Below are positions 4,052-5,614 of a stretch of 64,000 nucleotides of DNA, piece after piece (the stretch's first letter is position 1; each line of letters opens with the position of its first letter). The position numbers and the translations under genes are program-made. Under the pieces are notes generated by a model that worked only from the letters and a program-made list of their open reading frames with translations, did not search any database and was not told where the DNA came from. This DNA comes from an uncultured bacterium (GTDB lineage Bacteria > Chlamydiota > Chlamydiia > Chlamydiales > Rhabdochlamydiaceae): the NCBI GenBank assembly GCA_964461105.1, contig CAYWSY010000001.1, positions 8,714-72,713 on the forward strand, given 5' to 3'.

Positions 4052-5446
4052 ATGGCGCAGTATCGGATTGAAAAAGACTCGCTAGGTGAGGTCCATGTAC
4101 CGGTGGATGCTTACTACGGTGCCCAAACAGCTCGTTCGCAACTTAATTTCCCAATTGGACATGAGAAAATGCCCATCGAGGTGATCCGTGCGCTTGCGAT
4201 CATCAAACGTGCCGCCGCGCATGTCAATTGTGAGTTGGGGATTCTCCCTAAGAACAAACGGGATCTGATCATAGCTGCTGCCGATGAGGTGATCGCAGGT
4301 CAATTCGATAGTCAGTTTCCCCTTTCCGTCTGGCAGACGGGCTCAGGTACTCAGACGAATATGAATGTCAACGAAGTCATCAGTAACCGGGCGATTGAAA
4401 TGGCAGGAGGGGAGCGTGGATCCAAGAGCCCCATCCACCCAAACGATGATGTGAATCAATCTCAATCGTCTAATGATGTGTTTCCAAGCGCTATGCATAT
4501 TGCTGCGGTTCTCGATCTCCACCGCTTTTTGATCCCAGGCTTAAAAAAGCTCCACCAGGGATTAAAAGACAAAGCTCATGAATTCAGGGCGATTGTTAAA
4601 ATTGGGCGCACGCACCTCATGGATGCAACTCCGCTTACATTGGGACAAGAATTTTCTGGATACGCTTCTCAAATTGAACATGGGATTAAAGCGCTTGAAT
4701 ATGCGATCGGGCATATTTCTGAACTTGCTCTAGGTGGTACTGCCGTTGGAACAGGGATCAACGCACCTGCTGAGTATCCGGAGCGGATTGCAGCTGAAAT
4801 TAGCCGCATCACTGGATACTGTTTTGTAACAGCACCGAATAAATTTGAAGCGTTGGCATCGAATGATGCTGTTGTTGAGATGAGTGGCGCGTTGAAGCGG
4901 ATCGCTTGTTCCTTCATGAAAATTGCCAACGATATACGCTGGCTTGGATCTGGTCCGCGCAGTGGGATTGGGGAAATTATCCTTCCTGAAAATGAACCTG
5001 GTTCTTCGATTATGCCAGGAAAAGTTAATCCGACACAGAGCGAATCGATGACGATGGTTGCCATTCAAGTGATTGGCAATGATGCAACGATTGGCTTTGC
5101 AGGCTCCCAAGGAAATTTTGAGCTCAATGTCTTTAAACCCCTTATGATCTATAATCTGATCCAATCGATCCGTCTCTTAACGGATGTCGCAGTGAATTTT
5201 CATGACAAGTGTCTTATCGGCATCAAGCCTCATTTGACGCGGATCCAAGAGCACCTCAATCAGTCGCTCATGCTCGCAACAGCCTTAAATCCGATCATTG
5301 GGTATGACAAGGCTGCCAAGGTGGTTCAAAAGGCATACAAAGAGGATAAAACCCTAAAACAGGCGGCTCTCGAATTGCAATTCCTGACCGAAAAAGAGTT
5401 TGATGCTGCGATGGACCCGCGCAAGATGGTGAATTTCAACGATTAG
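4052..5446 (+). CDS. fumC: Fumarate hydratase class II
   Basis: 464 aa. [11 protein letters not shown] signature (GSSxMPxKxN). Full-length aspartase/fumarase-family layout. Confidence 0.95.
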
Positions 5447-5614
5447 ACCTCTTGCGTAACTAAGGGTTCGTCGATTTTCGGGATTATTTTGGCCGCTTTT
5501 TGATTCTTTTTTGGGGGGTAATATACGTATGTTGATATTATCCCCCAAAAAAGAATCAAAAATCGGTTCAAAAGAACCCGAAAATCGACAGAACCTTAGT
5601 TACGTAAGAGGTCT
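5445..5614. repeat. PE-A copy 1: 170-bp imperfect palindromic element
   Basis: Two arms of about 80 nt are mutually complementary around the 10-nt loop ACGTATGTTG (5525-5534). Symmetric about 5529.5. Related copy at 16880-17065. Confidence 0.9.

Follow-up and report, generated by a model that had tools for sequence, protein, structure and literature searches.

The window analysed here is a 64-kb stretch of DNA (64,000 nucleotides of contig CAYWSY010000001.1) from an uncultured bacterium of the Rhabdochlamydiaceae. It contains two copies of a long imperfect palindrome, which represent the palindromic element family named PE-A in this work (copy 1 at 5445-5614 and copy 2 at 16888-17064). The locus raises the question of what kind of element PE-A is, and of why its arms differ between the copies yet match each other within each copy. 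The original prediction had described a repeated palindromic element family with co-varying arms. This part is supported, while the transposon-derived nature of the element, as shown by terminal inverted repeats, target-site duplications, an empty site and a partner insertion sequence (IS), had not been recognised. We conclude that PE-A is very probably a family of non-autonomous DNA transposons (MITEs, for miniature inverted-repeat transposable elements) of environmental Chlamydiota, which an IS5-type transposase would mobilise in trans and in which copying probably keeps the arms alike.

Copy 1 consists of two arms of 81 nt each (5444-5524 and 5535-5615 in the inverted-repeat finder), which are 85% complementary and separated by a 10-nt spacer. 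As RNA, it folds into a single hairpin of -112.4 kcal/mol (z = -19.65 compared with 200 dinucleotide shuffles). The hairpin that had been predicted at this position was borne out in its arms, its fold and its exact limits. Copy 1 is arranged as follows:

5442-5444, no strand: left target-site duplication (ATT), from the comparison of the empty sites in L118 and L116 with the window
5445-5614, plus strand: copy 1, a complete 170-bp MITE with class-1 termini AGACC...GGTCT and the loop in orientation A
5445-5466, plus strand: left terminal inverted repeat AGACCTCTTGCGTAACTAAGGG, the first 16 nt of which are identical to the ends of full-length IS5/ISL2-type IS
5467-5504, plus strand: left half of the conserved asymmetric core, TTCGTCGATTTTCGGGATTATTTTGGCCGCTTTTTGAT, with (nearly) invariant columns in alignment A1
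5505-5524, plus strand: left inner stem TCTTTTTTGGGGGGTAATAT, subfamily-specific, with columns that co-vary with 5535-5554
5525-5534, plus strand: 10-nt asymmetric loop ACGTATGTTG, orientation A
5535-5554, plus strand: right inner stem, from the inverted-repeat finder and co-variation
5555-5593, plus strand: right half of the core, ...ATCGGTTCAAAAGAACCCGAAAATCGACAGAA, with three conserved departures from the complement of the left half
5594-5614, plus strand: right terminal inverted repeat, which codes for the NUDIX end PLT-stop on the minus strand
5615-5617, no strand: right target-site duplication (ATT), from the empty-site comparison

The left half of the core contains the CGATTTTCG motif, and the second motif position is occupied by the variant CGCTTTTTG. 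The three departures in the right half form an ATTA/GAA internal loop and two single-base bulges. Copy 1 matches the family profile with 162 bits on the plus strand and 98 bits on the minus strand (nhmmer). The open reading frames (ORFs) that overlap it are mechanical ones of 42-64 aa, leaving the element without coding capacity. The window contains exactly two occurrences of the shared 25-mer TCGTCGATTTTCGSGATTATTTTGG, compared with 0.00 expected, and the family profile search found no third PE-A copy in the 64 kb.

Evidence for insertion comes from two related contigs, L118 and L116. There, the NUDIX and fumC genes are convergent with an 11-nt overlap, and no element is present at the junction. 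The empty site reads ...ttcaacgATTgatgtgg... (also given as ...ttcaacgattgatgtgg...) and the NUDIX-fumC junction reads ...aatttcaacgattgatgtggatgcc..., whereas the window has ...aatttcaacgATT[AGACC...170 bp...GGTCT]ATTgatatgaatgcc... at the same position, in short ttcaacgATT[170 bp]ATTgatatg. Copy 1 is therefore an exact 170-bp insertion with a 3-bp ATT duplication, and it is this comparison that sets its limits. A TA duplication of the IS630/Correia type was considered and rejected, as the empty site gattgat has no TA and the duplicated sequence is ATT. The C-terminus of fumC is unchanged by the insertion, with GAT TGA becoming GAT TAG, where AG comes from the element. The terminal repeat of copy 1 extends NUDIX by three codons and gives it a new stop: the NUDIX protein ends in ...GIHINRPLT in the window, while in the 59 other homologues for which the C-terminus was read, the end is nearly always ...GIHIN and one more residue, most often R. 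Differences in presence between related strains had been named originally as an indication of mobility, and the empty fumC/NUDIX sites of L116 and L118 are an example.

Copy 2 also forms a very stable hairpin (-102.2 kcal/mol, z = -19.64 compared with shuffles). Its features are:

16885-16887, no strand: left flank TTA (degenerate duplication, TTA vs TCA)
16888-17064, plus strand: copy 2, length 177 bp, termini GAGCCTATCTCAGTAAAATTT.../...GGGATAGGCTC, core oriented as in copy 1, loop in orientation B
16967-16976, plus strand: loop CAACATACGT, which is the copy 1 loop in reverse complement (flip-flop)
17043-17051, plus strand: 9-nt insertion TACAGACTA in the right outer arm, not present in the family consensus ...TTTTTACTGGGATAGG
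17065-17067, no strand: right flank TCA

The second copy had been placed at 16880-17065. The copy is real, and its limits are those given above. Its inner 30 nt differ from those of copy 1 and are self-complementary in both, as had been claimed. Two features had escaped the earlier description: the loops CAACATACGT of copy 2 and ACGTATGTTG of copy 1 are reverse complements of each other while the asymmetric core has the same orientation in both copies, and direct repeats flank the elements (ATT/ATT at copy 1, TTA/TCA at copy 2). The two copies differ mainly as members of different subfamilies, in their terminal repeats, inner stems and flipped loop, and did not diverge from each other in place. 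Read with the bases that follow, the 9-nt insertion gives TACAGACTACTGGG, which is similar to the terminus and flank TTTACAGACTACTAGGG (49340-49358) of a second palindromic family of the window described below. From its sequence, the insertion may be the footprint of an excised nested element.

Copy 2 is absent from the closest relative, L245, a Rhabdochlamydiaceae metagenome-assembled genome (MAG) with a trpS gene that is 89% identical. The homology of L245 to the window restarts at precisely 17065 (TCATCCCA...). On the left side, the sequences have diverged and a pair of genes including Fic was inserted there, so that the empty site of copy 2 is only half clean. In the pknD-trpS region of the closest relatives (L245 181-1200, L246 840-1200), a Fic-domain gene and a small upstream gene are found, both of which are missing from the window. 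A solo GAG-type terminal repeat (..GAGTTCTTAGACAGCCTCTAA) is located at about 345-370 of L245, and in L246, a different palindromic element (TATACCGAACGTGTTTCAAAATTTGG...), about 170 bp long, lies just upstream of trpS.

A presence/absence difference like that between the window and L245 is also seen between L045 and L063. At an orthologous site with flanks that are 81% identical, L067 contains PE-A (6206-6375) and L089 a different, 183-bp palindromic MITE (7021-7203) with termini GAGCCAGTTGC / GAGCCAGTTGCTAAACT. The two loci belong to the chromosomes OY970369.1 and OY970179.1, and ATA(A) flanks both elements. Either the site is a shared insertion hot spot, or one element was replaced by the other. 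L033 and L062 were considered as another single site with two elements. This was rejected, as only about 35 nt of flank are shared, indicating that the copies are nested in another repeat and that the two sites are not orthologous.

How widespread is the family? We scanned one genome per species with a 22-mer of the core that has one free position (21 specified bases) and found the PE-A core in at least 115 further loci from about 40 genomes. The case of only two existing copies, named originally as a refutation, does not apply. All carriers are MAGs and are labelled Chlamydiota, PVC ('Verrucomicrobia') or only 'bacterium'; the labels include Rhabdochlamydiaceae, Parachlamydiales and similar, plus some 'Verrucomicrobia'. 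Among the retrieved loci, up to 12 come from one MAG assembly and 10 from one complete chromosome, and some 8-kb chunks contain two or three copies. The scan of viral contigs gave no match to the core, and neither did a distant blastn search with copy 1 in the plasmid collection.

The anatomy of copy 1 is that of the family. A length of 167-173 bp is found in 73 of 75 complete copies, and complementarity of the outer arms, each about 22 nt long, is seen in 82 of the 94 copies scored, identifying these arms as terminal inverted repeats. They fall into several classes: AGACCTCTTGCGTAAC.., GAGACTGTC.. with its relatives, and GAACCTATCYCAGTAAAATTT. The core reads TTCGTCGATTTTCGGGATTATTTTGGCCGATTTTCGAT on the left and ATCGAAAATCGGCTCAAAAGAACCCGAAAATCGACWGAA on the right, where it departs from the complement of the left half at three fixed places. 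The inner stem varies by subfamily (e.g. AAATTGCAGGGG, TTTTTGCGGGGG, AAATTCGGGGGG) and leads into AATAT, the 10-nt loop and ATATT. Truncated, internally deleted and 'outer arms only' versions are also present. Four copies (L018, L023, L049 and L068) lack the 22-nt unit between two CGAAAATCG repeats of the right arm, and appear from their sequence to be deletions between short direct repeats inside the core.

Target-site duplications are a general feature of the family. They are 3 bp long and follow the pattern TNA or ANT, except in one terminal-repeat class, where they are 2 bp long. By class, the flanks are:

GAG-type, 3 bp: perfect in 24 of 38 copies; TAA 9, TTA 7, TGA 4, AAG 2, TCA, ATA; permutation mean 6.0 (max 14)
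AGACC-type, 3 bp: perfect in 9 of 17 copies; AAT, ATT, ACT, AGT, TAT; permutation mean 3.1
GAACC-type, 2 bp: perfect in 21 of 26 copies; TT, AA, GT, CT and others; permutation mean 6.2 (max 13)

Insertion sequences of the ISL2 group in ISfinder are about 850-1200 bp long and have direct repeats of 2-3 bp. Among short metagenome elements picked by the AGACC terminal repeat, about 34 of about 40 have perfect 3-bp repeats when judged by eye. Their flanks include TTT, AGA, AAA and AAG, repeats that cannot be an extension of the palindrome. Three-nucleotide targets are described for the IS1031 group of IS5 (PMC2516522), and the Harbinger/ISL2EU transposons, which are relatives of IS5, generate duplications of 0, 2 or 3 bp (PMC12730594).

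Which transposase could move these elements? To find partners, metagenome contigs were scanned for the terminal repeat of copy 1 followed by non-core sequence, which returned 120 loci. They include 15 elements with a length of 882-963 bp and the ends AGACCTCTTGCGTAAC...GTTACGCAAGAGGTCT, each with two overlapping ORFs joined across an A-rich stretch. In Pfam, the ORFs match HTH_Tnp_4 (E = 7.8e-13), DDE_Tnp_4 (1.3e-14) and DDE_Tnp_1 (6.3e-12). At E <= 1e-20, 3723 homologues of the fused protein were found. The top ones carry the name IS5 family transposase and belong to Chlamydiae MAGs and Neochlamydia sp. AcF84, followed by Orientia, Legionella, Wolbachia, Rickettsia, Spiroplasma and the 'IS5-like element ISCaa3' of Amoebophilus. 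ISCaa3 is a 914-bp member of the ISL2 group of IS5 that encodes a 275-aa protein by a -1 frameshift and has relatives in Parachlamydia (PMC3196728). The transposase family is also found in Babeliaceae and is spread over unrelated intracellular bacteria, a distribution that fits exchange within shared eukaryotic hosts.

The termini of these IS correspond closely to those of PE-A. The IS of Neochlamydia AcF84 reads ATT-AGACCTCTTTCGAAAC...GTTTCGAAAGAGGTCT-ATT, and in AcF84 and two chlamydial MAGs it takes the form ATT-AGACCTCTT(T/C)(C/G)GAAAC...-ATT, with the variant TTCGGAAAC in one MAG. ATT/ATT flanks are found around the IS in L241, L243 and L244. The end AGACCTCTTTCGAAAC of the AcF84 IS is exactly the terminal variant on five PE-A copies (L004, L021, L073, L079 and L087), and the form TTTCGAAAC, found in AcF84 and one MAG, is the terminal-repeat variant of the same five. 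PE-A thus has the properties of a MITE: it is short and non-coding, has terminal inverted repeats and target duplications, occurs as dispersed copies with empty sites, and has its termini in common with a transposase-encoding IS. From this correspondence of ends, we infer that it is an IS5-type transposase that mobilises PE-A, and the GAGAC and GAACC classes would have IS partners of their own. The window also contains one isolated end:

36539-36554, plus strand: solo class-1 terminal repeat AGACCTCTTGCGTAAC, 16/16 match, at the end of a gene (..AGTTATTAG)

It is followed by unrelated sequence without the core, and is probably, judging by this match, a remnant of a PE-A-type element or of its IS.

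The same termini bear on a different proposal, in which PE-A belongs to the IS200/IS605-TnpB world and the palindrome is moved as single-stranded DNA by a Y1 transposase. PE-A is a bulged hairpin, as are the ends of IS200/IS605, and the PE-A loop in L110 is interrupted by roughly 1 kb of inserted DNA that includes a degenerate TnpB-like ORF (CNKC...CPHC...RDENAAING). This is a single case among more than 115 loci, the gene is frameshifted, and about 15 nt of the left inner stem and loop are missing. IS200/IS605 elements insert 3' of a fixed tetra- or pentanucleotide and are not known to have terminal inverted repeats or target duplications. PE-A has terminal inverted repeats as well as 2-3-bp duplications, and its termini match those of IS with a DDE transposase. 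We consider this proposal hardly credible. The TnpB-like protein of L110 (4343-5494, Rhabdochlamydiaceae MAG CAVTNO010000007.1), which lies inside the PE-A loop, contains ..CNKCLHQVEGG..WECPHCKTLHIRDENAAINGL.. and is frameshifted. TnpB was rejected as a component of PE-A: L110 was taken as a secondary insertion, and a motif scan gave one other TnpB-like match, which is unlinked.

The position of PE-A relative to genes was assessed with mechanical ORF calls. At 55 of 162 flanks, an ORF of at least 100 aa ends within -12 to +17 nt of the element boundary. The stop codon overlaps the boundary in 36 of these 55, because the TNA target or the first bases of the element (GA.., AG..) make a stop. In the AGACC class, the ATG of a long ORF is located 0-5 nt outside the terminus in 10 of 17 cases, compared to 3 of 38 and 2 of 26 in the other classes. 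The junction reads ...GCAAGAGGTCT-N0-5-ATG, and the typical site is a stop/start junction such as TAATG. This places the outward AAGAGG of AGACC-class ends where a Shine-Dalgarno sequence would be, and by its position we infer that AAGAGG could serve as a ribosome-binding site. Neighbouring genes stay intact at stop codons, stop/start junctions and overlapping ends because the ends of PE-A carry these signals. Overall, copies occur in all gene contexts, and many lie between a stop and the next start codon. Copy 2 is upstream of both of its neighbours, by 13 nt in the case of pknD (counted to the start codon) and by 126 nt in the case of trpS. Transcription of pknD must therefore pass through the element or start in it, and no promoter-like site supports a start within it.

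These placements also bear on whether PE-A could be a bidirectional intrinsic terminator or a palindrome of the repetitive extragenic palindromic (REP) type, arisen in place and immobile. The location of copy 1 between convergent genes and the high stability of its hairpin are in line with this, and the first bases of the core are CGTC, the motif of CGTC-tagged REPs (PMC3733652). On both strands, a T-run precedes and an A-run follows the inner stem, leaving no U-run directly after it. No terminator-like site above shuffles was found by scanning over the main hairpin of either copy, and a scan for promoter-like sites in the two copies likewise gave none above shuffles. Rfam 15 at the gathering threshold identified two tRNAs in the whole window and no match to PE-A. 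Moreover, copy 2 and many other copies are located upstream of genes, the exact empty site indicates insertion, and REPs of 20-40 bp with 8-9-bp stems and an unpaired tag (PMC3733652) contrast with a 170-bp element that has terminal repeats and duplications. PE-A is not a terminator and not a known RNA family, in agreement with the original view that it is not simply a terminator, and an immobile origin in place is very unlikely.

The agreement between the arms extends over the whole family. In an alignment of 76 copies, RNAalifold predicted 62 pairs, 39 of which show at least one double compensatory change. Columns 71:111 are an example, with GC in 25 copies, CG in 24, UA in 14 and AU in 6. 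Over all predicted pairs, 93.7% of the cells are Watson-Crick. The observation that had been made on two copies therefore generalises, and selection on the hairpin and conversion within the element were the right pair of options to consider.

Several features point to DNA-level exchange between the arms. The loop is found in orientation A in 62 copies and in orientation B in 15, with both orientations present in five genomes including that of the window. L035 is an exact inversion of the centre of L005, L027, L036 and L090 from the same chromosome, and a mismatch in the inner stem is flipped along with it; L085 has the same inverted loop. L019/L107 and L022/L037 provide a second case of inversion. 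In L048 and L043, the core of the right arm has become a (near-)complement of the left, with one or two differences, and partly so in L041. These symmetrised cores (L048 at 7882 on the minus strand, L043, L041) have GGCCAAAATWATCCCGAAAATYG in place of GGCTCAAAAGAACCCGAAAATCG and are direct evidence of arm-to-arm copying. The third feature is that the two CGAAAATCG repeats form the ends of deletions in the right arm. When inverted arms recombine, the sequence between them is inverted. Template switching in quasi-palindromes is a documented mutational route by which one arm is copied from the other (PMC7202029). The best explanation for the concordance of the arms would be conversion at the DNA level rather than selection. 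The conserved core asymmetries led us to reject fold-back regeneration, a model in which each transposition would rebuild one arm from the other.

We propose that PE-A would be moved in trans by IS5-family DDE transposases of the ISL2/ISCaa3 type (HTH_Tnp_4 and DDE_Tnp_4, joined via a frameshift), encoded by IS that carry the same terminal repeats. Insertion duplicates 3 bp (TNA/ANT), or 2 bp in one terminal class. Surviving copies are those at gene boundaries, where the ends of the element bring stop codons and, in the AGACC class, also the outward AAGAGG. A change in one arm would be copied to the other by intra-element recombination or by replication template switching in the quasi-palindrome, and the same process may now and then invert the loop. 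Successful variants would then amplify as subfamilies.

A number of observations weigh against this model. The window and the first 118 loci contain no cognate transposase by tblastn with the partner transposase, so that the earlier statement that no transposase is present in the window holds for this family. In the same 118 loci, no partner IS was detected with seeds of six terminal-repeat types or with long-range inverted repeats, no multicopy transposase by clustering of 980 ORFs, and no match by phmmer with E. coli IS5 InsH, for which an approximate query sequence was used. The sequence common to PE-A and the IS is limited to the terminal 16-20 nt, and the subterminal DNA of the IS is unrelated to the core. 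PE-A is therefore not a simple deletion derivative of the IS. The match of termini holds for the AGACC class, and no IS partners were found for the GAGAC and GAACC classes. Eight of the 15 full-length IS copies have non-identical ATT/AAT flanks, which may result from chimeric assembly of repeats on contigs of 1-2 kb. Conservation of the core is overstated by a first family sample picked by the exact core 21-mer, which a sample selected by terminal inverted repeats corrects in part. Finally, the three asymmetries of the core persist in divergent subfamilies of the latter sample in which the neighbouring stem has co-varied. As free arm-to-arm conversion would erase these asymmetries, some selection must act on the core as well, for transposability or for something else.

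It is conceivable that this selection reflects a function beyond transposition. PE-A would then still be transposon-derived, with the asymmetric core hairpin as a functional module under selection and the arm co-variation as a result of selection for pairing. Candidate functions are a structured RNA in neighbouring transcripts (a processing or stability site, or an operon decoupler), a DNA cruciform, or a protein-binding site formed by four CGATTTTCG motifs about 22 nt apart. In favour of this, at least three terminal-repeat classes and about 40 genomes have the core in common, the ATTA/GAA loop and bulges of the core are retained where the flanking stem has co-varied, the compensatory changes in 39 of 62 pairs are what selection for pairing would leave, and many copies lie within transcription units. 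Correia MITE hairpins in Neisseria can be RNase III substrates and carry promoters (PMC2649163). On the plus strand as oriented, G-T mismatches (103) outnumber A-C mismatches (64), with 114 others; these counts are not independent owing to shared descent. RNA-level selection on one strand was rejected as an explanation of the mismatch types, the asymmetry being weak and confounded by this descent, with no clear one-strand signature. The absence of Rfam matches and of promoter or terminator signals above shuffles also speaks against a functional core, as do the occurrence of copies in all gene contexts and the lack of enrichment of CGATTTTCG outside the elements. Deleted, truncated and symmetrised variants are common, and selection for transposability could equally keep the core. 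We regard such a function of the hairpin as unlikely.

Similarly doubtful is a more specific version, in which the core (GGGATTATTTT / AAAAGAACCC internal loop, two bulges and four CGATTTTCG motifs) is a functional cassette, acting as a site for a structure-specific protein or RNase or as a cis enhancer of transposition. If true, the core would have been moved onto several different terminal-repeat 'chassis' and dispersed across lineages of chlamydiae, the element would exist in two states through inversion of the loop, and insertions at stop-start junctions would rewire translational coupling in chlamydial operons via the AAGAGG site of the element itself.

With the MITE reading preferred, PE-A can be placed among known systems. 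It is closest to MITEs derived from IS5/ISL2, whose IS of the ISCaa3 type occur in amoeba- and arthropod-associated intracellular bacteria: it has 16-20 nt of terminal repeat in common with an IS, generates 2-3-bp duplications, and is short, non-coding and multicopy. It differs in that its interior is an unrelated, conserved, near-full-length palindrome and not a deleted IS, that one interior is combined with at least three terminal classes, and that the loop flips. Correia elements are flanked by TA duplications and have repeats of 26 bp with an unrelated sequence; they also bind IHF and give rise to promoters. By description, PE-A is set apart from them by its 3- or 2-bp duplications, the absence of a promoter signal above chance and an identified autonomous partner. 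The Correia elements (CREE/NEMIS) of Neisseria resemble PE-A as MITEs of about 100-170 bp with terminal repeats and a conserved core, with many copies in or next to transcription units and long RNA hairpins that can affect neighbours (PMC2649163).

Rickettsia palindromic elements (RPEs) are likewise palindromic repeats of about 100-150 bp in obligate intracellular bacteria and are tolerated in or at gene ends, comparable to the three codons that copy 1 adds to NUDIX. They are typically inserted in frame inside ORFs and are not known to have recognised terminal repeats, target duplications or a partner IS. PE-A, compared here by description only, is mostly found at stop or start codons. REPs and CGTC-REPs have in common with PE-A that they are extragenic palindromes, with CGTC at the start of the core in PE-A. 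They differ from this 170-bp element with arms of about 80 nt by their length of 20-40 bp, stems of 8-9 bp, loops of 4-5 nt and lack of target duplication (PMC3733652).

In the literature searched, we found no account of PE-A or any other MITE from Chlamydiota, and Chlamydia is not mentioned in a 2024 review of MITEs in prokaryotes. The unusual traits of PE-A are its near-full-length palindrome, a core that is better conserved than the termini and combined with several terminal classes, the flip-flop of the loop, and the high precision with which copies are placed at stop and start codons. It adds a new case to a well-known type of selfish DNA and does not constitute a new type of system. For annotation, PE-A accounts for unusual gene ends, NUDIX with its three additional codons being one, and a possible effect on expression at stop/start junctions is flagged. 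With a partner IS common to Orientia, Legionella, Wolbachia and Amoebophilus, PE-A offers markers for recent changes in the genome and for exchange among co-resident intracellular bacteria. More than 100 copies with several subfamilies and flipped loops also constitute a natural data set on arm matching in long quasi-palindromes.

Environmental chlamydiae, unlike the pathogenic Chlamydiaceae, contain many repeats, and the genome of the window is riddled with hairpin-shaped repeats of about 170 bp. A second, unrelated palindromic family of this size is present at 49189-49358 and 53082-53257 in opposite orientations. It has termini CTAGTAGTCTGTAAACAAAG... and an inner hairpin GGATCGAGGGGGGCTGTGT, and its first copy is located about 130 nt downstream of the tRNA at 48976-49060. 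Relatives of this family (GCTGCGTGAAAGC..CCGCGGTT) are nested inside PE-A in L023, L043 and L053 and are also found at L106. A third palindromic family, with inner arms AAAAAATAACAGGATAATAGGATGGCAGGATA and outer arms TATACCCCTTCCGGTTCAAAGGCACTCAGAAT, is located at 33875-34054 and 27368-27467, with one copy complete and one partial or rearranged.

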